Shown: piece after piece, positions 63 through 11,621 of the stretch
Position numbering within the stretch: position 1 is the first letter of the stretch
How the letters are laid out: each line of letters starts with the position of its first letter
Source: Fidelibacterota bacterium
GTDB lineage: Bacteria; Fidelibacterota; Marinisomatia; Marinisomatales; S15-B10
Length of the DNA: 13,596 bases
NCBI GenBank assembly: GCA_046861655.1
Contig: JBHIAI010000044.1
Coordinates: forward strand, 1-13,596
Direction of reading: 5' to 3'
The notes under the pieces: model-generated
The model's input: only the letters and a program-made list of their open reading frames with translations
What the model was told of the DNA's origin: nothing
Database searches by the model: none
Translations under genes and position numbers: made by a program

Positions 63-782
63 TTATCTCTTGAAGGTGAAATCTACCCTCCTGGTTTCAT
101 CCTTTTCGATGGTCACGGTGGCGGTCCGGGATCCCAGCTTTTCGTGCCAGGCCTCCACCGTGTAGGTTCCTGGCTCCAGATCTGAGATGGTGTAGACGCC
201 GTCCTTTTCTGTCACATCGAAAAATGGATGATCCGTCACAGCGATGAATCCCCCCATCCATGGGTGAACGTCGCACTTGATGGGAAACACGTCTTCCGCA
301 AACTCAAAGGAACGGGTAGTCTCCTTGAGAAACTTTGGCATGGTGACGTTGAACTCGTCGTTGACGTTGGGAAGAGCGTGGAGGTTGTGAAGGACACCGT
401 CGGAATTCAGGAACTTTAGAGGCTGACCCACCATCAGACCGAGAACGTGGGGTTCGTACCTGCAGCCGTCCTGATTAAGAACGACGGGCTCTTCAGGAAC
501 CTCCCATTCCTTATCCGGTAATCCTCTGGAGATCTGTACAAAGATGTTGGCCATGGTGCTCCCCTCCCCCAACACCAGAGCTTCTGAGCGGGCGGGATAG
601 GCCTCAGGATCCTGTTCGTGCTTCATGACACAGACCGGTTCAATGGCCATGTCAAACGATCTCAGTTTGGGTATTTTCCCTTCATAGCGGACGGTTCCGC
701 TCACTGCCCCGCCTGCGGTCAGGCACGTGAGGTATCCAAACAAAAGGGTCGCCCCTATGCCGGCTGACAAAGATCGATTCAT
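63..782 (-). CDS. Exported cupredoxin-like protein with C-terminal carboxypeptidase-regulatory-like beta-sandwich (paralog 2)
   Basis: Seen: 239-aa ORF, AGGAG RBS, N-terminal signal peptide, and HNLH...CDVHPWM, matching the H...C-x2-H-x2-M type-1 copper ligand pattern. C-terminal 'DGVYTISDLEPGTYTVEAWHE' is typical of carboxypeptidase-regulatory-like domains. Clear paralog of 4425..5159. Copper binding is inferred. Confidence 0.8.
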   Translation of the reverse strand: MNRSLSAGIGATLLFGYLTCLTAGGAVSGTVRYEGKIPKLRSFDMAIEPVCVMKHEQDPEAYPARSEALVLGEGSTMANIFVQISRGLPDKEWEVPEEPVVLNQDGCRYEPHVLGLMVGQPLKFLNSDGVLHNLHALPNVNDEFNVTMPKFLKETTRSFEFAEDVFPIKCDVHPWMGGFIAVTDHPFFDVTEKDGVYTISDLEPGTYTVEAWHEKLGSRTATVTIEKDETRRVDFTFKR

Positions 783-1376: not shown

Positions 1377-2120
1377 TTAGCGGGGTGCATTCTTCCCGGG
1401 GTTGATGAATTCATGAAGCAAGAAATTCACCAGGTCCCAGATCTGATCTTCCGTGAGGGTCCCTTCCACCGCCGGCATGGCACTTCCGGTCAGACCGGTG
1501 GACAGGGTTCGGTAGATATCTTGCGGTTCGGACCCGCCGATGAAAAGCCACGGCCTCGAAAGGTCAGGGGGAACGATCTTTTCTCCCCAGGTATCCTTGA
1601 GGGAGGGGGTGCTGGGTCCGTCTGCGTGGCCGCCTACTCCATGACACTTCCAGCATTCCATGGCCATGTACCATTCCCGCCCCGCGGCGACACTTTCGGG
1701 GGTGGGAGCTTTCCGGGGAGGCAGGGGTAAAACCCTGGCCCTTTTCTGGCGGGCGAACTTTGTGGGAGCGAAGGTTTTGATGTACTGGATAACCGCCTTT
1801 TTGTGATCGGTGGGCAGATTGGACCAGGCCGGCATGGCGTTGTCCTGTCCCATTCCCCGGCCCAGGGTCCTGTGAAGGTCACTGTCCAGAGGGACCTGAC
1901 CCGAGGACGTCGACCGTACCTTGAACTTGCCGTCGGTGAAATTCCGGGGTTTCACAGACAGGTTACCGGCCACGGGACCGTCTCCCTTTCCTGAGACACC
2001 GTGACACACGGCACAACTCTCCACATAGATCTTCCGCCCCTTTTTGAGGACGTCCTCATCCTGACTGCCAGCAAAAGAGGCCGCAACTCCCAGCAGGAGA
2101 ACGACAAAACGTTTGCCCAC
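1377..2120 (-). CDS. Periplasmic diheme class I cytochrome c
   Basis: Seen: CAVCH and CWKCH, each followed by G-x-x-G-x-x-DGP and a distal AMP motif (His/Met ligation inferred). Start moved from the ORF-track 2213 to GTG at 2120: GGAGGT RBS just upstream, signal peptide follows, and the overlap with the upstream gene disappears (247 aa). Confidence 0.88.
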   Translation of the reverse strand: MGKRFVVLLLGVAASFAGSQDEDVLKKGRKIYVESCAVCHGVSGKGDGPVAGNLSVKPRNFTDGKFKVRSTSSGQVPLDSDLHRTLGRGMGQDNAMPAWSNLPTDHKKAVIQYIKTFAPTKFARQKRARVLPLPPRKAPTPESVAAGREWYMAMECWKCHGVGGHADGPSTPSLKDTWGEKIVPPDLSRPWLFIGGSEPQDIYRTLSTGLTGSAMPAVEGTLTEDQIWDLVNFLLHEFINPGKNAPR

Positions 2121-2137: not shown

Positions 2138-3781
2138 TTAGAATGCGAACATCACCATGAACATGAACCAGCTGGAATCGATACTGACCACCCTGCCCAT
2201 TCCGGCCACCCATTCTGGATTGTACATATTGGGAGGCGGCTCAGGGAAACCAAACAGATTGTCCTGATTCCCGTACTCCACCACAACCGTCACCGGTTGA
2301 TAGTTGAGATGCCACCTAAAACCCACCACATACCGGGAGTAACCGTTTTCGGGTCCCGAATCCACATTCCCCGTCATCATCCGGGGCATGGGATCACCGA
2401 AGAAGTATTCGTTCCCGTCGTATTCCCACGAGGCGGAACCGGCTTCCCTGATGAATTGACCCTCTACAGGATCGCCCCACTGGTTATTCACGGTAACCCA
2501 ATCGTAGCGGGTGATGAAATAGAGTTTGGTGGGAACGACGACTACATCCGCACCGATGAAGCCCCCCGAATAGTCGAAGGGCCTGTCCAGCCACTCATCT
2601 ACACTGGCGGTCCTGGCCAGGCCATGGCCGTGATCGCCTTCTTCCTTCCCTCCCCCCGCCAGATACGGAAGATTGAGGTTGGTCATATCGATATCCTCGT
2701 CATGACCTACCACGTACTGGCCGTAGAGGTTAATGGGGTACCCCAGATACAGGGGACCCAGGGTGAAGTCGGGCAGCTTCAGGTCTACAGAAGCGTCCAC
2801 CCCCCAGCGATAGAAGGTGGAATTCTCTTTGTCGATGTGAACGTTGATATCGAATTCGTTTTTCCAGTAATCGATCATGCCATCGGTGGGATAGGGATTC
2901 CCCGAAAGATCCCTCAAGTTCTGGCGCCCATAGTACACCAGGCCTCCCACCCTGGCTGTTTTGATCAACCCGTCAAACATCCTTCCCACGGCCAGACGGC
3001 CGTACACATCAAACTCCACGTTGGTATCGAACTGGGCGTTGGTCCCGTTCACCAGAGCCAGTTCGTACCGGAGCCAGTTCAGGCCCAGGTGGGAAAGTCC
3101 GTTGAAGGCCACCCCGACCTGGGGGGACGACAGCCGAAAGGACCCCTTGACCCCACGGATATCGTATACCTCATACGGTGAAAGGGCGGAGCTCAACCTT
3201 CTTATGGATGAAAAAGGAAGTTCCAGTTCAAAAGACCCGAATTTCAGATTGGCCACGCCTGTGCGGGAATTGAAGATGTTATTCAGCTGGAAAAAGGCAA
3301 AATCCCAGTGGGCATGGGAGGGGGAGCCGAAGCGGCCCGCTTCCACCTCCAGTTCCTGCTCAATGCCCAGGGAAGTCATGAAGGAAAGGTGTTTGCCCAG
3401 GGTGCCACCGAACCAGACATGGCCCCCCATGTCCCTGAACGACCGGACGCTGTAGGTCTTGCCCGGCGGCAGGCCCGGAGGCGGGGTGGCACCGTCCATC
3501 CGGTTGTGAATCTTCCTGTCAACAAACATCTCGTGAAGCATGGCAGCCACCGGCACCTTGTGAAGGGTCCAGGCCGGGGTATCCTCAACCGTACCGGGAA
3601 GTTGATACCCGTTCGCCCGGAACCATTCCCCGAATTGATTGAGCTTCGGTTCAGAAACGTGGCAGGTCTGACACGGCTTTCCGTATTTCCTGGCAAACGA
3701 GGGAATCCCGGATGCCATTCCGGGAATCAGAGCAAACAATAACATGACCACAACGGTCGTCCGGAGGGTGAATCCATTCAT
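2138..3781 (-). CDS. Cyc2-like fused monoheme cytochrome c / outer-membrane beta-barrel porin
   Basis: Seen: signal peptide, then IPSFARKYGKPCQTCHVSEPKLNQFGEWFRANGY, matching the Cyc2-family N-terminal signature PxFAR[QK][TY]GxxCxxCH-x3-PxL...GY. The rest has alternating amphipathic beta-strands and ends in Phe (MFAF, BAM signal). GGAGGAGG RBS. Confidence 0.82.
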   Translation of the reverse strand: MNGFTLRTTVVVMLLFALIPGMASGIPSFARKYGKPCQTCHVSEPKLNQFGEWFRANGYQLPGTVEDTPAWTLHKVPVAAMLHEMFVDRKIHNRMDGATPPPGLPPGKTYSVRSFRDMGGHVWFGGTLGKHLSFMTSLGIEQELEVEAGRFGSPSHAHWDFAFFQLNNIFNSRTGVANLKFGSFELELPFSSIRRLSSALSPYEVYDIRGVKGSFRLSSPQVGVAFNGLSHLGLNWLRYELALVNGTNAQFDTNVEFDVYGRLAVGRMFDGLIKTARVGGLVYYGRQNLRDLSGNPYPTDGMIDYWKNEFDINVHIDKENSTFYRWGVDASVDLKLPDFTLGPLYLGYPINLYGQYVVGHDEDIDMTNLNLPYLAGGGKEEGDHGHGLARTASVDEWLDRPFDYSGGFIGADVVVVPTKLYFITRYDWVTVNNQWGDPVEGQFIREAGSASWEYDGNEYFFGDPMPRMMTGNVDSGPENGYSRYVVGFRWHLNYQPVTVVVEYGNQDNLFGFPEPPPNMYNPEWVAGMGRVVSIDSSWFMFMVMFAF

Positions 3782-3813: not shown

Positions 3814-4260
3814 TTATCCCGTGGAAACTGTACCCCTCTCAACAGGATGTATGGAAATGCCTTCGAAATGCTGACGGTCAAGGATGGTCTGGATCTCAGA
3901 CTGGATCCGTCCCATGGTCTTGATGATGGGACCGCAAAGACTCAAGCGACCGCAATTTTCGAAGTCTTCGGAGAGGCACTCCACCATTCGAAGGGGACCG
4001 TCGATGGCCTCGATGACATCCCGGAAGGTGGTTTCTCGTGGCGGTTTCCTCAAGGAATACCCACCCTTGACCCCCCGCTCTGAGACCAGAATACCGGCCC
4101 GGGTCATTTTCTGGAGGATCTGAGAAAGGAATTCTCTTGGAAGGTTCAGGTCTTTGGCCATCTGGGATTTGCTTCTCATGTTTCGGTGTCCCGCCGGGCT
4201 TTGAGAAGCGAGATAAGCCACGGTCAGGATAGCATAGTCTGCCGCTTTACTGAGGTACAA
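3814..4260 (-). CDS. Rrf2-family transcriptional regulator (Fe-S binding, NsrR/IscR-related)
   Basis: Seen: TTG start with AAGGGGGG RBS, N-terminal LSKAADYAI, HTH 'PREFLSQILQKM', wing 'SERGVKGGY', 'DVIEAIDG', and Cys95-x7-Cys103-x5-Cys109. Confidence 0.93.
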   Translation of the reverse strand: MYLSKAADYAILTVAYLASQSPAGHRNMRSKSQMAKDLNLPREFLSQILQKMTRAGILVSERGVKGGYSLRKPPRETTFRDVIEAIDGPLRMVECLSEDFENCGRLSLCGPIIKTMGRIQSEIQTILDRQHFEGISIHPVERGTVSTG

Positions 4261-4424: not shown

Positions 4425-5159
4425 CTACTTTTTCTTCTTCGGTCTTTCCGGCCGCTTGAGGGTAAAATCGACGGACACCGTTTCCCCTTCCTTGATGGTT
4501 ACGGTGGCAGTCTGAGGGGGCAGCTTTTCATGCCAGGTCTTCAGGGTATAGGTTCCCGGGGAGAGGTTGGGAATTTCGAAGGAACCGTCCGCGGAGGTGA
4601 CGGCAAAAAACGGGTGATTGACCACACCCACGAAGGCGCCCATCCAGGGGTGGACATCGCACTTGATCCTCACCATGATTTCGGGGACTTCAAATACCTT
4701 GGTAATCTTCTTTCTCGCCGCCGGCATGGCCTCATTGAATCTGTCATTCCCCGGTTCCTTGGGGAGGGCGTGAACGTTGTGAAGGGTGCCGTCGCTGTTC
4801 AGGATGTCGATGGGTTGTCCGGCCTGAACCCCCAGGACATGAGGACGGTACACACACCCCTCTTGATTGATCGTAGCGGGCTCCTCCGGGATGGGAAATG
4901 AAGTATCGACCAGACCCGAATCCACAAAGACGAAGACATTCTTGAGTTCTCCGTTTTCTCCGGCAAGGAGCCATTCCGTACGGACGGGCTCCTCCTGTTT
5001 CATTTCGCAGACGGGATCGGACCCCATCCGTATGGGTTTCATCCGGGGAACAGGTCCGTCATACACCACCGTGCCCGTTACTTTCCCTGTTGCGTACAGG
5101 AAGCTTCCGGTCAACACAAGAACGAGACATGTGGCCGCTGCCGAATGATTAGTCGTCAT
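4425..5159 (-). CDS. Exported cupredoxin-like protein with carboxypeptidase-regulatory-like domain (paralog 1)
   Basis: Seen: 244 aa, AAGGAGG RBS, signal peptide, HNVH...CDVHPWM, 'DGSFEIPNLSPGTYTLKTWHE', basic tail, tandem TAG TAG stops. Confidence 0.8.
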   Translation of the reverse strand: MTTNHSAAATCLVLVLTGSFLYATGKVTGTVVYDGPVPRMKPIRMGSDPVCEMKQEEPVRTEWLLAGENGELKNVFVFVDSGLVDTSFPIPEEPATINQEGCVYRPHVLGVQAGQPIDILNSDGTLHNVHALPKEPGNDRFNEAMPAARKKITKVFEVPEIMVRIKCDVHPWMGAFVGVVNHPFFAVTSADGSFEIPNLSPGTYTLKTWHEKLPPQTATVTIKEGETVSVDFTLKRPERPKKKK

Positions 5160-5198: not shown

Positions 5199-8100
5199 CT
5201 ATTCCTCCCAGTCCTCCCACTCTTCCCATTCTTCCTCTTCCACCTTGAAGAACTGGTATCCGTGTTCGTCAAAATAATCGGTTACCTCTTTGGTGATATC
5301 CGTTTTGCCCGGAAGGGAAAACACGTAGTCGGCCAGCCCCCAAAGCATGGCTTCTGGATTTCCCTTCAGGCTCAGAACGGCTCTTCCAAAAATCTCCGAT
5401 GCATCGGAAGCCTCCAGGTCCCGATCTGTGGGGACATAGGGTTTGGGCATCCTGGTGTCGGGCATGATGGCCTGGGGATCGCGGAGGAAGTCCACCACCC
5501 ATTCCGGGCGAAGCCTGTTCCTGGTCATGGCCAGGTTGGGGCCCCAGCTCTCGGGTTTTCCCAGAGGAAACGTGCTGCCGTAGAAATGGCAGTTGCTGCA
5601 AGCACCCATTTCATGGAGTTTCTCTCCGGCATGGTACCGGATCGACTGTACGTCCACGGTGTGGGGCGATTCGTAGGCATTCACTTCATCCTCAAGGAAC
5701 TGGAAATACTTGATGATGGAGTTCCATTCGTCATCGGACAGATGAAACGTGGGCATCCTTACCCGAAGGCTGGGCCGGATGATGGTCGGATGCTTGAAAA
5801 AGTCGAACAACCAGCCGGGCTGGGTCCTGGCTCCCTGGGTATGGAGGTTTGGGGGACTGAAATCGACGGACACCTCTTCCGCCTCCGCCGGATCCATGTC
5901 GTTCGTCTCCACCAGCCACTCTGTTATGGTGGGACGAACGGCCCCTCCGTCACCTTCTATGATATGGCATCCCTGACAATTGTACTCCCGCACCAGCCAC
6001 TGGCCCTGATGGACGTCGGGATTCTGCGACCGTATGGGTTTTACGCCGTAGGATGTCTTCACAAATCCCAGGAGGGCCGTCACAATGGCGTCGGCTTCTG
6101 TGTCGGTAAACTCAAAGTTGGGCATTCTGAGTTTCTCGTAGGGCCGTTTTACCTTGTTCCTGTCGAAGCTCCGGGGATGCTTCAACTTATGTTTGAACCA
6201 GGACTGCCGGGTATGGTCAATGTCGAGCAGCCCGAAGTCCAGCTTCTCTACGGCCTTGCTTCCCTCCTCAGTCAATTCGGTCCCGATGGGCTTTTCTTCT
6301 TCAAACCCGGGGATGTTGTGGCAGCCGTAGCATCCGTAGAAACGGAGCAGCTTTTCCCCCGCATAGTCGAGTTTTTCCTCAAGATTCATGCCGGAAAGCC
6401 TCTGCCGGGAGTCGTAATCGCTGAACATGTTCGAAAGGAAATTCAACACCACTTCGTCGATCACATCTTCTCTCAGTTCGGGGATTTCCTGCTGGAGGAA
6501 TTCCTCCCGGGGGGGCAACGACATGAGATAGGCCGTAATGTCAGCGGTCTCTCGGTCGGTCAGCCTTAGATTGGGCATTTTCGTCCGGGGAAAATACCGC
6601 TCCGGTTCTTTCAACCAGTTATACACCCACCGGGCGTTGGACTTGCTGGCGAGGCCGATTAGATTGGGACCGTGGTCCCGCCGCAGGGACTGGAGGGAGG
6701 TCTTCTCGCTGGTGGGCTCCGCTTCAATCCTGTGACACCCCATACATCCCAGGGAATGGGTAAGGTCCCGGCCTCGCTGGATATCTCCTTTCACCGGTAT
6801 GGGTTCCAGAGGAAAGTCCCCGCTGTTGTCGAACAGATAATGGACGATGGCATGGATCTCGTTATTGGTTCGAGTCACAGAGGCCGAGTCGCTGGTGTTC
6901 GCCAGACCGAAAAACCGGGGCATCCAGGTATTGTGCCGGAACAGTTTGGGATTCCTGATCCACAGGTAGGCCCAGTCCCTGGAAACCTTCGAAGCGATCT
7001 TGTTCAGATCCGGACCTATGCGGCGTTTGTCCTTGTACCGCTCGATGGTGTGGCACCCGAAACATCCCGCCCGCTCGATAAGGTTCGTTCCCAGATTCAG
7101 CCTATCCGCCCCCCGGACGAAGATCTCCTCGGAGTGGCACTTGAAACAGCCGGCTTCCGCATACTTCACAGGGAACATGGGATCGTCCCAGTGGTGCATC
7201 TCGTGCCACTCATACCGGACGGACCATTCTTCCTCTTCTTCCGGTGAATCGGGCGTATGGGCCGAGGTGATGAAGTCCGTGCCCCTTCCCCTGCCTCCGT
7301 GGCAGCTGGTACATCCGAATTGCTGGACCGGATGGGGCGAACCGGTGGCCAGGAACAGTTCAAGATCGGGATGGGTGGTGAACGGTTGGGGTGCGTCCTC
7401 GAACCCGGGCTTGGCGATGCCCAGATGACAGGTGGTGCACCGGTCCACCTTGGGAACCTGGGCAAAATTCAGATCCTGGGTGATGTCATTCAGGATGATC
7501 TGGTCAATCTTGTAGTAGGGATTCAGGAAATCGAGTACGGGCAGGTCCCGCACCAGGCTCGCGATTCGATTCGCGAAGGTCATGGAGGAGGGGTCGATGG
7601 TTTTCAGTTTCCGGATCAGCAGGTCAACGTCCCGGTTCAGCCGGGAAAAGGAATCCCTGGCGGTATGGACCTCCCGTCGCATGGACCGAATGCTTTGAAG
7701 TTTTTCGTCCAGTTTCCGTTTTGCCTCCTCCATAGCCAGACGCCGTTCGTGGGTTTCGGTTTCCAGCCGCTGCAGGTTTTCCCTGGCCTCAAGAGTATCC
7801 ACGTGGGCCCCTGCCACGGCCTCCTCATAGGCATATTTGGCGGCGTCGTACTTGGCCTTGGTGAAACTGTGTTCCTGTTGAGCCTTGTAATGCCGGGCTT
7901 CCAGCTTCGACGCCTCTTTCTCCAGGGTTTTCAAATCCCCTTCTCTCTCTTCCAGGTCTTTCCTGGCGGCGGACAACCTTTTTTTCACCTGCTGGTAATC
8001 CTCCCGGGCCGACAGGCGTTGGATCTCCCCGTTGAGCTCCCCCGCTGTATGGGCAATTTCCAGCTGGCGGAATTGACGCTGGTAGCTCTTCCACGGCCGG

Positions 8101-8210
8101 GCGTAGTCATCGGCAAAGGTCCACACCAAGAGAAGAAGGAACACCAGGCTGGAAACGGCAAACAGGCGGTTAAGCCGGAAAATGTTGTAATGGCGTTCGT
8201 GTTTCTCCAC
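5199..8210 (-). CDS. Membrane-anchored octaheme cytochrome c, probable cytochrome c subunit of the Rieske/cyt b complex
   Basis: Seen: 1003 aa, GTG start 8 nt after the previous stop, N-terminal TM helix, long coiled coil, and eight CxxCH motifs (CTTCH, CTSCH, CFKCH, CFGCH, CMGCH, CYGCH, CQGCH, CSNCH). Confidence 0.9.
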   Translation of the reverse strand: MEKHERHYNIFRLNRLFAVSSLVFLLLLVWTFADDYARPWKSYQRQFRQLEIAHTAGELNGEIQRLSAREDYQQVKKRLSAARKDLEEREGDLKTLEKEASKLEARHYKAQQEHSFTKAKYDAAKYAYEEAVAGAHVDTLEARENLQRLETETHERRLAMEEAKRKLDEKLQSIRSMRREVHTARDSFSRLNRDVDLLIRKLKTIDPSSMTFANRIASLVRDLPVLDFLNPYYKIDQIILNDITQDLNFAQVPKVDRCTTCHLGIAKPGFEDAPQPFTTHPDLELFLATGSPHPVQQFGCTSCHGGRGRGTDFITSAHTPDSPEEEEEWSVRYEWHEMHHWDDPMFPVKYAEAGCFKCHSEEIFVRGADRLNLGTNLIERAGCFGCHTIERYKDKRRIGPDLNKIASKVSRDWAYLWIRNPKLFRHNTWMPRFFGLANTSDSASVTRTNNEIHAIVHYLFDNSGDFPLEPIPVKGDIQRGRDLTHSLGCMGCHRIEAEPTSEKTSLQSLRRDHGPNLIGLASKSNARWVYNWLKEPERYFPRTKMPNLRLTDRETADITAYLMSLPPREEFLQQEIPELREDVIDEVVLNFLSNMFSDYDSRQRLSGMNLEEKLDYAGEKLLRFYGCYGCHNIPGFEEEKPIGTELTEEGSKAVEKLDFGLLDIDHTRQSWFKHKLKHPRSFDRNKVKRPYEKLRMPNFEFTDTEADAIVTALLGFVKTSYGVKPIRSQNPDVHQGQWLVREYNCQGCHIIEGDGGAVRPTITEWLVETNDMDPAEAEEVSVDFSPPNLHTQGARTQPGWLFDFFKHPTIIRPSLRVRMPTFHLSDDEWNSIIKYFQFLEDEVNAYESPHTVDVQSIRYHAGEKLHEMGACSNCHFYGSTFPLGKPESWGPNLAMTRNRLRPEWVVDFLRDPQAIMPDTRMPKPYVPTDRDLEASDASEIFGRAVLSLKGNPEAMLWGLADYVFSLPGKTDITKEVTDYFDEHGYQFFKVEEEEWEEWEDWEE

Positions 8211-8218
8211 GGTAGACT

Positions 8219-9334
8219 CTAGATGTTAAAAAAGAACTCTGGAATGGCGATGATGTATTTCAGATTGAACAGCCATCTCAGATACATCTTGAAGGGAAGA
8301 GCCAGCATGCAGAGAAGCAGGAAGATGAAGATACCGAATTTCACGTTTCCCATATCCTGGTGAAGTTTTCTGAATACGGTTCTGGCCAGAAGGGGGGGAA
8401 CGGCAAGAAAATAGACGAGCACAGTCGCAAAGCCGAAAAATTCCCGGAGAAAGATATTGCCGGGCACCCCCGTATTCAGGAGTTTAATGTAGATCAACTC
8501 AGAGAGATTGATGTTGGTCATGGGCACCAGCTTGTGTACATCCCAGAATTCGAAGGGGCCGAAGAAATTCCAGTTGGGTCCTCTCAGGAACGTTCCCACC
8601 ATGATGAGCATGATCCAAAGGACCAGCCATCCGAAAAGAAAGATAGGGATGGCCAGGCTCCTTTTCTTGAAGCTGTAGAATCCGGACCCCTCCCGGTTGA
8701 TGTCAATGTAGGGAATGGCCATGAGTCCCAGAATGATCAAGGTGGGAAAGACCACCCCGGCCAGCCACGGATCAAAATAGACCAGCATCTCCTGAAGTCC
8801 CAGGAAGTACCAGGGGGCTTTGGAGGGATTCGGGGAATCGGTGGGGTTGGCGGGACCTTCCAGGGGGGCCTTGAGGGCGATGGACCAGACAAGAAGAAGG
8901 GACATCACCAGGATCAGGGCAATGAACTCAATGTACACCAGGTCGGGCCACACAAGGACTTTGTCCTCGGGATCGTGGAATTCCCCGGGCTTATCCCCTT
9001 CCTCCAGTCTTCTGTCATTCTGGAGGGCCTGATTCATGGCGATCCAGAGGAAGATGAAGACCAGAAACACCAGTCCCACGATGGGCACGTTATCGGGCTT
9101 GAGTACAATGAGCCGGAAATTCTCGTCCGTAATCCCGAAGGCGAAAAACGCCAGCAGGATGGCCAGCACCGCCAGGAACCCTTTCGGCGTCCAGATGGCG
9201 TTCAGGTGAAGCCTCCTGTTCCACTTCTCGAACCACTTGCTGGGAGGGAAAAGGAAAAGGAACGTGAGCATGGCCACCGGGAGCATCACCGTGGGTCGGA
9301 TCACCAGGTTGGTTATGGCTTTGAACGTTTCCAT
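8219..9334 (-). CDS. Cytochrome b C-terminal part (subunit IV/PetD-like) with N-terminal membrane extension
   Basis: Seen: polytopic 371-aa protein. 'WPDL' and 'GPANPTDSPNPSKAPWYF' align with the subunit IV WP... and PA[DN]P..TP...PEWYF motifs, followed by 'AIPYID'. Lies directly after the b6-like gene. Confidence 0.85.
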   Translation of the reverse strand: METFKAITNLVIRPTVMLPVAMLTFLFLFPPSKWFEKWNRRLHLNAIWTPKGFLAVLAILLAFFAFGITDENFRLIVLKPDNVPIVGLVFLVFIFLWIAMNQALQNDRRLEEGDKPGEFHDPEDKVLVWPDLVYIEFIALILVMSLLLVWSIALKAPLEGPANPTDSPNPSKAPWYFLGLQEMLVYFDPWLAGVVFPTLIILGLMAIPYIDINREGSGFYSFKKRSLAIPIFLFGWLVLWIMLIMVGTFLRGPNWNFFGPFEFWDVHKLVPMTNINLSELIYIKLLNTGVPGNIFLREFFGFATVLVYFLAVPPLLARTVFRKLHQDMGNVKFGIFIFLLLCMLALPFKMYLRWLFNLKYIIAIPEFFFNI

Positions 9335-9364
9335 CTGCCGGTATCGAGTTCAGAAGGGCCGGGA

Positions 9365-10168
9365 TCAGGTGGGCCCGGAAATGCCTCCGTCTTTTCGGAT
9401 TCGCCAGAAATGAACCCCCATGAATATGAGGATAATAAAGGGGAGCCCGATGCAGTGAAGGACGTAGAACCGGAGGAGGGCTCCCTCCCCCACGAATCTT
9501 CCCCCCAGGAGCGCAAACCGGGCATCGCTCGTCGACTGGATAAAGTTGATGTCCCCTATGCTCAACAGGGAGGCACCGGGGCCTTCATGCCCCAGGAACG
9601 GGGTCGCCCGGGCCATATTGGAACCGACGGTGATGGCCCAGATGGCCAGCTGATCCCACGGGAGCAGATATCCTGTAAAACTCAGGAGCAGGGTGAGAGT
9701 GAGAAGAAGCACTCCCACCACCCAGTTGAATTCCCGGGGGGGCTTGTAGGAGCCGGTCATGAACACTCTGAACATGTGAAGCCACACGGTGATCACCATG
9801 GCGTGGGCACCCCACCGATGGATTTCCCTCATGATACCCAGGGGTACCTGCTCCCTCAAATCCATGATGTCGGTGTAGGCGTATTCCACTGTGGGGCGGT
9901 AGTAGAACATGAGGAGGATTCCTGATATGGTGAGTACCAGAAACAGGAAGAAAGACAGCCCTCCCATGCACCAGGTGAATTTGAGCTTCACCGCATGCCG
10001 GGGAAGCCTTACCGGGTGCAGGTGAAGGAACACGCTGTTCAGGATGGACATCATCCGCTGGCGGCGGGTCACAGGAACGCCGGTCCGGAAAATGGACTTC
10101 CACAGTTGGCTGCCGCCGATTCTTTCGGGAAGGGGGCGCTTCTTTTTCTCTTCAGGATTGGGCGACAT
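9365..10168 (-). CDS. petB: Cytochrome b N-terminal part (cytochrome b6/QcrB-like)
   Basis: Seen: WCMGG, '[12 protein letters not shown]', HRWGAH...LHMFRV, 'PREFNWVVG', 'TGYLLPWDQ', 'RFYVLH...[15 protein letters not shown]'. All four heme-b His ligands present. Confidence 0.93.
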
Positions 10169-10190
10169 GGGGTGGGATTCCTTTCATTGC

Positions 10191-10748
10191 CTAGACAACC
10201 AGAAACGATTCCGGATCGTTCCATTCTCCTTTTTCGTACTGATATTTCTTGGTCTTGTCCACCTGGATCTGACCGTCATCGGCGAGGACGATCCTGAACC
10301 GTTCCAGAGGACGGGGGGCCGGACCTTCAAAGTTGATCCCTGATTTTCTGAACCCGCTTCCGTGGCAGGGACACTTGAATTTCTGTTCGTTCTCCAGCCA
10401 GTTGGGTGTACACCCCAGATGGGTGCACACCGTTGAAAGGGCGTAGATGTATTCGGGTGTTCTTACCACCCAAATGGCGTGGCGCTTTTTCCACCTGATA
10501 TCCACCTCTCCCACTTTGTACTCATCGGAGAACCCGATCTTGAATGTCTGGGGAGGTTCGAAAAGAACGTTGGGGAACATGAATCTCACGATCATGGTGA
10601 GAAAGGCCCCGGTGGCAGCGGCGAACGCCACCCAGGCCACGGTGAGCCATGAGAAGAAAGACCGGCGGGTCATGCTCTCCGTGATGCTTCCCTTTCCCAC
10701 GGAGGCCCGGGTCCTGGGTGGTAGTTTCTTTTCCTTCAGGTTTTCCAT
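10191..10748 (-). CDS. petC: Rieske [2Fe-2S] subunit of quinol:cytochrome c oxidoreductase
   Basis: Seen: Tat motif TRRSFF plus TM helix, box I CTHLGC, box II CPCHGS, and GPAPRPL. Confidence 0.95.
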   Translation of the reverse strand: MENLKEKKLPPRTRASVGKGSITESMTRRSFFSWLTVAWVAFAAATGAFLTMIVRFMFPNVLFEPPQTFKIGFSDEYKVGEVDIRWKKRHAIWVVRTPEYIYALSTVCTHLGCTPNWLENEQKFKCPCHGSGFRKSGINFEGPAPRPLERFRIVLADDGQIQVDKTKKYQYEKGEWNDPESFLVV

Positions 10749-10760
10749 ATTCTCACGAGG

Positions 10761-11621
10761 TTACAGTTTCGAGGCGTTGAGGGCCGCGTTCCGGATTCTC
10801 ATATTCACGTCGGCCCCCGCCAGGTTGCGGATGGCGGCATCCAGAGATGAATCGTTCAGCTGGGACGCCGCATCGATGGCCACCACCACGGCCTCGGTCC
10901 GTTCGTAGCTGTCTACCTCCCTGAACTGGTCGAAATAGTTCATGTCCAGGAGATTCAGAAGAACTCGTTTGCCGGAATGGTCGCCCAGCCTGGCCAGGGC
11001 CACCGCGGAATTCCACACCACATTGGGCTCGGGATCCTTCAGAAGGGATTGAAGGGGTGGGATGCCCTGTGGAAACCCCATGTTTCCCAGGGCGATGGCC
11101 GCCCGGTTTCGAACCAGAGGAGAACGGTGATCCGTCATGGCGATGACCCGGTCCAGATCCGTTTCACTTCCGATGATTCCCAGGGCGAAAACGGCATCGG
11201 CAACCACCTCCTCGGAGTCATCCCGGAGACACCCGGAGACCGTTTCAGAGAATGTCGCCATCCGGGTCTGGCCCATGGCGCGGATCAGGTACTGCTTTAC
11301 CCTGGGGTCCCGGTCGTCTTCGGCATAGTCAAAGGCCGACAACATCTGGGCCACGAACCGGTCGGAGTCGGGTATCCGGTCGGGATCGGACAGAATCTTC
11401 GATAGTTCAAAGGCCGACTGCCACCTCTTGGAGGCACTCCCGATCTTGACGTCTTGAAGGTAGTCCTCCACCGTCTTGGGTTCGTGAGTCAGAATGAGCC
11501 AGATCCAGTAGAAAATCAGAACGCTGACCGCGGTGATTACGAACGGCAGGATAAAGAAGGAATGTATGTTGACCCGTATGGGGGATTCTTTTTTCGTAGA
11601 CTCAGTCACACGATTCTGCAT
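10761..11621 (-). CDS. Membrane-anchored HEAT-repeat (PBS-lyase-like) protein
   Basis: Seen: one N-terminal TM helix and repeats such as 'DPRVKQYLIRAMG', 'SEEVVADAVFALG', 'SPLVRNRAAIALG', 'DPEPNVVWNSAVALARLG'. Ends 12 nt upstream of the Rieske gene. Confidence 0.85.
   Translation of the reverse strand: MQNRVTESTKKESPIRVNIHSFFILPFVITAVSVLIFYWIWLILTHEPKTVEDYLQDVKIGSASKRWQSAFELSKILSDPDRIPDSDRFVAQMLSAFDYAEDDRDPRVKQYLIRAMGQTRMATFSETVSGCLRDDSEEVVADAVFALGIIGSETDLDRVIAMTDHRSPLVRNRAAIALGNMGFPQGIPPLQSLLKDPEPNVVWNSAVALARLGDHSGKRVLLNLLDMNYFDQFREVDSYERTEAVVVAIDAASQLNDSSLDAAIRNLAGADVNMRIRNAALNASKL

Follow-up and report, generated by a model that had tools for sequence, protein, structure and literature searches.

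A 13,596-nt stretch of DNA from a Marinisomatota (Fidelibacterota; SAR406 group) genome, here called the window, encodes a Cyc2-family cytochrome-porin, P0001, at the head of a gene cassette that would tie it to a terminal oxidase of its own. We read P0001, with a probability of about 55%, as an inward electron wire in which a reduced metal, most likely dissolved Fe(II), delivers electrons through a diheme cytochrome and a cupredoxin to the cassette oxidase and O2. Fe(II) is the likeliest single donor, and the donor metal is the weakest step of this reading. The Cyc2 family itself is known; what is new is a Met/His-lined variant with a rus-like cassette and a dedicated oxidase in Marinisomatota. 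Cyc2 is used as a marker for iron oxidation, and SAR406 is an abundant marine phylum regarded as heterotrophic, so that a rus-like cassette with its own oxidase, if confirmed, would add metal-fuelled energy gain to the group. To our knowledge, no donor has been established for most divergent Cyc2 homologues, nor has the sixth heme ligand been identified. In the literature found, mostly non-subscription, there was no paper on cyc2 in Marinisomatota; as for Marinimicrobia, the accessible parts of PMC8114936 and PMC8276468 do not place it there, and that of PMC9342728 does not report Cyc2 in Kryptonia. No title describing a Met-lined Cyc2 or a rus-like cassette in Marinisomatota was found either, and published figshare trees and MAG tables may hold such sequences. 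Genes in the window are ordered Rrf2, cyc2, diheme, lipoprotein and cupredoxin, followed by an ATG at the contig end (Table 1); the cassette around cyc2 had gone unmentioned in the initial annotation.

Table 1. Features of the window (positions in nt; residue numbers refer to the encoded protein)
Feature	Position	Strand	Basis
Probable start of cassette oxidase subunit I (ten codons), truncated at contig end	1..30	-	ATG 32 nt after cupredoxin stop
Cassette cupredoxin fused to carboxypeptidase-regulatory-like domain	63..782	-	Invariant His132, Cys170, His173, Met176
Met-rich lipoprotein, no known family, 17 Met in 169 aa	827..1336	-	Pfam/NCBIfam and composition
Diheme cytochrome c, two CXXCH, two invariant Met; predicted Cyc2 partner	1377..2120	-	Likely GTG start at 2120
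Cyc2-family fused monoheme cytochrome-porin P0001, 547 aa	2138..3781	-	Motif, fold, profile
Closing strand 16, WFMFMVMFAF, residues 538-547; inward Met540, Met542, Met544; terminal Phe547	2141..2170	-	Model, conservation
His/acidic segment GGGKEEGDHGHG, residues 376-387, variable low-confidence loop L6 (probably extracellular)	2621..2656	-	Sequence, model
His121, strand 2, probable neighbour of His83	3419..3421	-	Sequence comparison
Pro-rich segment TPPPGLPPG, residues 99-107, loop L1 (probably extracellular)	3461..3487	-	Sequence, model
Strand 1, inward Met81, His83, Met85	3527..3541	-	29/29 close orthologues; 81 covaries with 544
Cyc2 motif, residues 26-47; CXXCH 37-41 at 3659-3673	3641..3706	-	Sequence
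Sec signal peptide, residues 1-25; probable cleavage before Ile26	3707..3781	-	Sequence and homologues
Rrf2 regulator, three Cys, 32 nt upstream of cyc2	3814..4260	-	Pfam/NCBIfam; position seen only in this genus
Housekeeping cupredoxin paralogue	4425..5159	-	Alignment, tree
Housekeeping bc-type complex: octaheme cytochrome c, split cytochrome b, Rieske protein, HEAT protein	5199..11621	-	Families, tree

Cyc2 proteins are defined by PxFAR[Q/K][T/Y] before CXXCH, PxL after it, and a length of more than 365 residues (Keffer et al., bioRxiv 10.1101/228056; this and the other published sources are cited from the parts of their text that were available). In P0001, PxFAR[Q/K][T/Y] is found 5 residues before CXXCH and PxL 4 after it. 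Residues 26-47 read PxFARKY, three residues, CXXCH and PxL, spaced as in published Cyc2, and the complete N-terminal motif described in the initial annotation was therefore borne out. The leading consensus position is Gly in P0001 and Ala in most orthologues. The strict motif occurs twice in a six-frame translation of the genome (4.1 million residues) and in none of 20 shuffles. The single CXXCH lies near the N-terminus, holds the only Cys residues of the protein, and follows a signal peptide judged from sequence and homologues, with a small residue at the -1 position of the probable cleavage site in 160 of 164 homologues; the mature N-terminus of Leptospirillum Cyt572 begins at the same motif position as Ile26 (PMC13741234). 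Pfam and NCBIfam searches of P0001 matched no family and no Cyc2 model, and an NCBIfam search of 65 homologues left 62 without a match and gave the other 3 weak porin matches.

When mature P0001 was modelled with AlphaFold2 from 133 sequences, a small helical heme domain and 16 strands were predicted (pLDDT 84.8, pTM 0.88; a first model, from an alignment of 28 sequences, reached pLDDT 67), in agreement with the beta-barrel-like body and terminal Phe proposed earlier. Fold searches returned 16-strand porins (OprO, E 1.9e-10), with Omp32 (Z 24.2, rmsd 3.0, 296 residues aligned) and OprP (Z 23.9, rmsd 3.0, 313 aligned) tied as best matches, and the best sequence-profile match of the family was OprO (E 3e-7). 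Nothing above noise came from a phmmer search of the PDB with P0001, and the listed fold and profile matches included no solved Cyc2 structure. OprO/P templates have likewise been reported for Cyc2 (Keffer et al., bioRxiv 10.1101/228056; PMC13741234). P0001 is accordingly a Cyc2-family cytochrome-porin for which the model predicts a 16-strand OprO/P-like barrel and a periplasmic heme domain, a domain that the phosphate porins OprO and OprP, similar in profile and fold, do not have. Characterised members of the family (A. ferrooxidans, Mariprofundus and Ghiorsea Cyc2, Leptospirillum Cyt572), compared by description, share with P0001 the signal peptide, PxFAR[QK][TY], single CXXCH, PxL, the 16-strand OprO/P-like barrel, and a diheme gene immediately downstream. 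P0001 differs from them in its long acidic extracellular loops, in a Met/His patch on strands 1, 2 and 16, and in its probable heterotrophic Marinisomatota host, and lies far from two proteobacterial Cyc2-like proteins (patristic distance 4.4-4.7).

Because the long loops follow odd-numbered strands, the Pro-rich and His/acidic segments are probably extracellular (L1 and L6). The initial annotation had called both insert-like, together with the Met-rich WFMFMVMFAF; the first two do lie in long loops, whereas the third is the closing strand 16 and not an insert. Its suggestion that the DHGHG loop might be a metal site fared poorly, since L6 is modelled at pLDDT below 50 and only 9 of its 40 positions are conserved. 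Of 29 orthologues, 17 retain His384 and 14 retain His386, although L6 has at least one His in each of the 28 parsed copies. A loop so variable and of such low confidence makes a poor site, and we rejected it as the primary one; a loose metal-gathering role of its His residues is possible. The long loops of P0001 are acidic (9 acidic and 3 basic residues in L6, 9 and 2 in L7), whereas those of OprO and OprP attract anions. This charge argues against a reading in which P0001 oxidises no metal and instead conducts anions (nitrite or nitrate), acts as a redox sensor, or exports electrons from the bc complex. That the nearest folds are anion-selective porins, and that cyc2 often stands right after the bc complex, speaks for such a role, which we nevertheless hold to be highly improbable, since His/Met dihemes and a dedicated oxidase would fit electron uptake better than export.

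Strands 1, 2 and 16 are predicted, from sequence comparison, to form an invariant inward-facing Met/His patch, where most retrieved relatives carry an Arg-Asp pair; the Met-rich strand had previously been listed as a mere feature, and the invariant lumen patch to which it contributes was missed. Met81, His83, Met85, His121, Met540, Met542 and Met544 are kept in all 29 close orthologues (near-duplicates included). Counting from the C-terminus, 56 of 188 family sequences have Met at both the 6th and the 8th position; all 56 also have Met81 and 52 have His83, while Met81 occurs in 2 of the 132 family members outside this Met-type group. In the 27 other Met-type members, position 121 is Asp or Glu in 26 and His83 is replaced by Arg in 4. 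On a quick tree of 53 rows, the Met state requires two changes. After dereplication at 60%, 116 Met-free sequences show covariation of position 81 with 544 (z 15), with a basic-acidic pair in 57, basic only in 11, acidic only in 6 and neither in 42. Shared ancestry inflates these figures, yet the covariation points to neighbours on the same face of the barrel. The geometry of the patch is thus derived from strand alternation and covariation, not from measured coordinates.

The composition of the patch suggests copper binding or heme ligation, and its seven residues could accordingly serve to bind metal or to ligate heme. The Fe-binding residues reported for A. ferrooxidans Cyc2 are Tyr and Asp (PMC13741234), and set against these, the Met-rich invariant patch would favour Cu(I) and count against Fe(II). 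One reading, which we rate as distinctly unlikely, is a heme-copper oxidase of the outer membrane, with copper bound in the patch beside the heme, and a cassette that drives the dedicated oxidase either by oxidising Cu(I) or with the bound copper as a relay for electrons from metal sulfides; if true, SAR406 and Kryptonia would respire a soft metal, and iron specificity would not extend to the whole Cyc2 family. A very unlikely variant retains the inward wire and makes Cu(I) its substrate, bound by the patch and oxidised by the heme, with the electrons burnt by the cassette oxidase for both detoxification and energy. All of the wiring evidence for the Fe(II) reading applies equally to this variant, which also draws support from the soft-metal nature of the patch and from an orphan lipoprotein copy that lies among heavy-metal genes (see below). 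However, free Cu(I) is scarce as an energy source, and the ligand set is mixed, as the replacements at positions 121 and 83 show. The occurrence of Met81 in the two proteobacterial Cyc2-like proteins, which have no strand-16 Mets, also tells against it, because Met81 may simply be the sixth heme ligand.

A sixth ligand is required by EPR in Ghiorsea Cyc2 (PMC13692758), and published Cyc2 models leave it unassigned (PMC13741234). In P0001 the Cyc2 motif starts at the probable mature N-terminus, Ile26 (3704-3706), 11 residues before CXXCH. The same spacing from cleavage site to CXXCH is present at the first heme of OmhA, to which the N-terminus of P0001 gave a weak PDB match (6QVM, E 0.13). In cytochrome f, the N-terminal amine is a heme ligand, and by analogy the amine of Ile26 is a candidate alternative to Met81. 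The accessible text of the OmhA papers does not state such ligation, and the literature found does not address it for Cyc2.

The patch also resembles the methionine track and HxM site of OprC (PMC8610252), which raises a rather unlikely reading of P0001 as a heme-assisted copper importer. With copper bound by the patch in the pore, electrons sent outward from the diheme to the Cyc2 heme would turn Cu(II) into Cu(I), which the Met-rich lipoprotein would then carry to neighbouring copper enzymes. By prediction, P0001 has in common with OprC/NosA an outer-membrane barrel whose wall carries Met clusters and a His-x-Met type arrangement; a linkage to copper enzymes is also shared (PMC8610252). In contrast, the barrel of OprC has 22 strands, depends on TonB and contains a CxxxM plug but no heme, and P0001, a 16-strand porin with a c-type heme domain, has neither such a barrel nor the CxxxM-HxM site, a difference of fold that weighs against import. 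The lipoprotein itself is likely to bind copper, judging from its composition (10% Met vs 2.7% in the other window proteins, with Met-to-His swaps), and this would suit an importer, as would the copper enzymes and chaperones found as neighbours (oxidases, SCO, heavy-metal ATPase, NosZ). Among 301 genomes of the phylum it has 12 strong matches, 11 of them in Cyc2 carriers, a count that is partly circular because the profile was built from carrier copies. The sole strong orphan copy adjoins DUF2231, zf_CopZ and HMA genes (L104:8265-11833, G174), again in line with copper handling. Nevertheless, a supply role would need no oxidase and cupredoxin paralogues of its own, a Met-free sister clade keeps the same link to a diheme and an oxidase, and divergent NosZ is found in only 3 of the 15 carriers of a true orthologue; an obligate link to NosZ was rejected on this last count.

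We therefore return to the inward wire, for which the diheme cytochrome is the first predicted relay. Its likely GTG start lies 17 nt after the cyc2 stop, and a diheme gene directly follows cyc2 in 14 of 14 assembled orthologue loci (the G292 contig ends inside cyc2 and is outside this count), and likewise in all 4 paralogue loci and all 7 intact Kryptonia-like ones. A complex of Cyc2 and the diheme with three hemes scored 0.86 in three runs, and the best of 3 controls scored 0.00. Of solved pairs, 116 of 157 reached this score, as did 2 of 215 mismatched ones; these counts hold only roughly here since our models used their own alignments and heme ligands, and close cousins of a true partner pass as well. 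The runs agreed in at least 95% of contacts, with partner pLDDT of at least 88, and brought Cyc2 residues 33-66, in the heme domain, and five short turns against the heme 1 region of the diheme. The model supports binding and sidedness, and bears on neither affinity nor direction. The five turns touched are periplasmic, and the diheme would cap the exit, a point against copper import. The best NCBIfam match of the diheme was cytochrome 579, far below the cut-off.

The cassette as a whole resembles the Acidithiobacillus rus operon, cyc2-cyc1-cup-coxBACD-rus, which follows the same logic in grouping genes for Cyc2 in the outer membrane, a diheme, copper proteins and a complete oxidase of the aa3 type (PMC10654088). 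The linkage of Cyc2, diheme and oxidase likewise matches the logic of the Zetaproteobacterial path from Cyc2 through Cyc1 to an oxidase (PMC7029218). In five loci (L007, L010, L011, L015, L053) the cupredoxin is followed by coxA, coxC, coxD and coxB, so that cyc2, diheme, copper protein and aa3 subunits occur together, as in a rus-type cluster. In the genome of the window, the linkage is deduced from matching cox genes on a separate contig, C67, which holds the end of a cassette subunit I followed by coxC, coxD and coxB1; the spacing from cupredoxin to ATG in L007 is the same as in the window. The gene order cyc2-diheme-lipoprotein-cupredoxin-coxA-coxC-coxD-coxB is unlike that of the rus operon, the lipoprotein belongs to no known family, and the type-1 cupredoxin appears, from family matches (amicyanin best in NCBIfam, below cut-off), to be an amicyanin-like fusion rather than rusticyanin. 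A further difference from the rus operon is that the cassette oxidase has a relative in the housekeeping enzyme of the host, with which it shares about 70% identity. The cassette is likely to be an independently assembled analogue of the rus operon. In FastTree trees with rows hand-chosen from the loci at hand rather than sampled, the cassette proteins grouped separately from their housekeeping counterparts in the same genomes, with clade support of 1.000 for the cupredoxin (23 rows), 0.999 for CoxB (23) and 0.945 for CoxA (22). In this genome the cassette sits inserted in the bc-complex cluster, and in G055, G059 and G158 it is located away from the housekeeping cluster. A promoter scan found 1 promoter-like site against 2.5 expected and a terminator scan 10 terminator-like sites against 5.5 +/- 2.5, neither of which was usable. 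In subunit I of the cassette oxidase and of the housekeeping oxidase alike (8064-9929 and 11907-13835 of L007, and 19 more sequences), the D-channel Asp and HPEVY are kept, and Phe or Ile stands at the position that we take to be that of the K-channel Lys of A-family oxidases.

In the path that we favour, a reduced metal outside the cell would give an electron to the Cyc2 heme, from which it would pass to heme 1 of the diheme, the two docking heme domain to heme domain in the predicted complex, then presumably to the cupredoxin or CuA, and finally to the cassette aa3-type oxidase, which would reduce O2. Flow would be inward, and the probably heterotrophic cell would gain extra proton motive force. 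The earlier suggestion of a possible metal oxidase has accordingly become more plausible through the linked diheme, cupredoxin and dedicated oxidase, with the metal itself still only a candidate; the other suggestion made there, redox-coupled metal uptake, is a rival to be taken seriously. The seven inward Met/His residues offer a handle for telling apart the oxidation of Fe(II), that of Cu(I), the uptake of copper and the ligation of heme, and a result in favour of copper would mean that Cyc2 counts overestimate iron oxidation.

The distribution of the genes bears on this path in both directions. Some Cyc2 match was found in 45 of the 301 phylum genomes and a true orthologue (E <1e-120) in 15, patchily spread over 7 families (2 of 46 genomes in family f5, for example). 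In 7 genomes cyc2 heads the cassette of lipoprotein, cupredoxin and coxA/C/D/B. Cupredoxin matches occur in 92 of the 301 genomes, 7 with the cassette type (at least 67% identity), all of them Cyc2 carriers, and 85 with the housekeeping type only. Against the favoured path, 8 of the 15 carriers have no cassette-type cupredoxin. Among these, cyc2 follows the bc complex in G223, G294, G141, G246 and G282, stands alone with diheme and lipoprotein, with no oxidase nearby, in G110 and G274, and otherwise lies on a cut contig. G158 has interrupted copies of both cyc2 and coxA1. Of 20 metagenome loci, 7 were intact in a Kryptonia-like group that includes a protein named from Ca. Kryptobacter; in 6 of these 7, cyc2 is preceded by genes for a shorter type of oxidase (subunits II and I) and by an SCO gene. 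In the Met-free sister group, a diheme is present in 4 of 4 loci with downstream DNA, and in one (L098) the pair is followed by a heavy-metal ATPase and a cbb3 oxidase, while in L050 a Cyc2-diheme pair precedes a CuA/NosZ-like cluster. With aa3-type, shorter and cbb3 oxidases and NosZ-like neighbours, the Cyc2-diheme pair is repeatedly linked to terminal electron sinks.

The host has a 2.06-Mb genome, 93% complete, and its named close relatives are Fidelibacterota/Marinimicrobia; motif, fold and this affiliation together support the earlier view that a Cyc2-like cytochrome-porin is encoded by a probably non-canonical host. At least half of the sequence words occur in three runs with the label hydrothermal vent metagenome, all from one study, and one may be the source; contigs from the vent-labelled runs are at least 99% alike. 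No RNA dataset was listed among those containing the sequence. Neither RuBisCO nor NiFe hydrogenase was found in the 93%-complete genome, and from its gene content the host is probably a heterotroph. It has a NosZ-like gene, several molybdoenzymes, cytochrome c assembly genes, and three more Cyc2-like genes on contigs C83, C64 and C27. The Atlas clusters nearest to P0001 are commonest in Nitrospirota and Acidobacteriota, which, together with the cytochrome 579 match of the diheme, hints at Cluster 3, the Cyc2 cluster described as the least certain in function (Keffer et al., bioRxiv 10.1101/228056). Cyc2 homologues are also reported from nitrite and Mn oxidisers (PMC9040806) and from organisms not known to oxidise iron; these occurrences and the uncertainty over Cluster 3 weigh against the favoured path. 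The taxonomic spread of the Atlas clusters is a point for the anion-channel, sensor or export reading, as is a Nar/Nxr-like enzyme in the host, with the beta subunit in 6 of 15 carriers vs 22 of 301 genomes overall; the other 9 of 15 carriers have no match to that subunit, which counts against this reading. An obligate link to Nar/Nxr was rejected.

Several further arrangements were observed in the loci examined. Alpha and beta subunits of a molybdoenzyme are encoded at L072:1-1736 (-) and L081:74-3457 (+), the beta subunit being the one present in 22 of 301 genomes, and presumably resemble the periplasmic enzyme (nitrite oxidoreductase/nitrate reductase) found in Nitrospira and in anammox bacteria. 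L080:1-5900 (-), L082 and L050:2031-8779 (-) hold a divergent NosZ-like cluster with Rrf2, a heme b protein, CuA proteins and SCO, and the close type of this NosZ-like protein occurs in 4 of 301 genomes. At L065:7026-9415 (-), a second Cyc2 paralogue of the Met type is encoded together with a diheme of its own, in divergent orientation to a Qrc-like pentaheme/molybdopterin cluster, and paralogues of this type are also present in G019, G013 and G159. Met-free Cyc2-like genes lie after a two-component system and before a short cupredoxin in L057-L063, L068, L069 and L107:6175-7515; a Rieske/cytochrome b complex and a Fe-S flavoprotein that binds NAD(P) are often encoded there too, and one of the Cyc2-like genes fills the slot after the octaheme cytochrome in the G158 housekeeping cluster. 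At L087:2004-4007, an SCO-like protein and Cyc2 share one 667-aa frame (P0029), through fusion or a lost stop codon; the two are separate in five related loci. In G273 (L111-L113) there are several cassette copies, with tandem and fused lipoprotein genes. Upstream of the orthologue in L013 (6157-10937) are genes for a heme b protein, a second diheme, a lipoprotein, and a 362-aa monoheme protein without a Pfam family.
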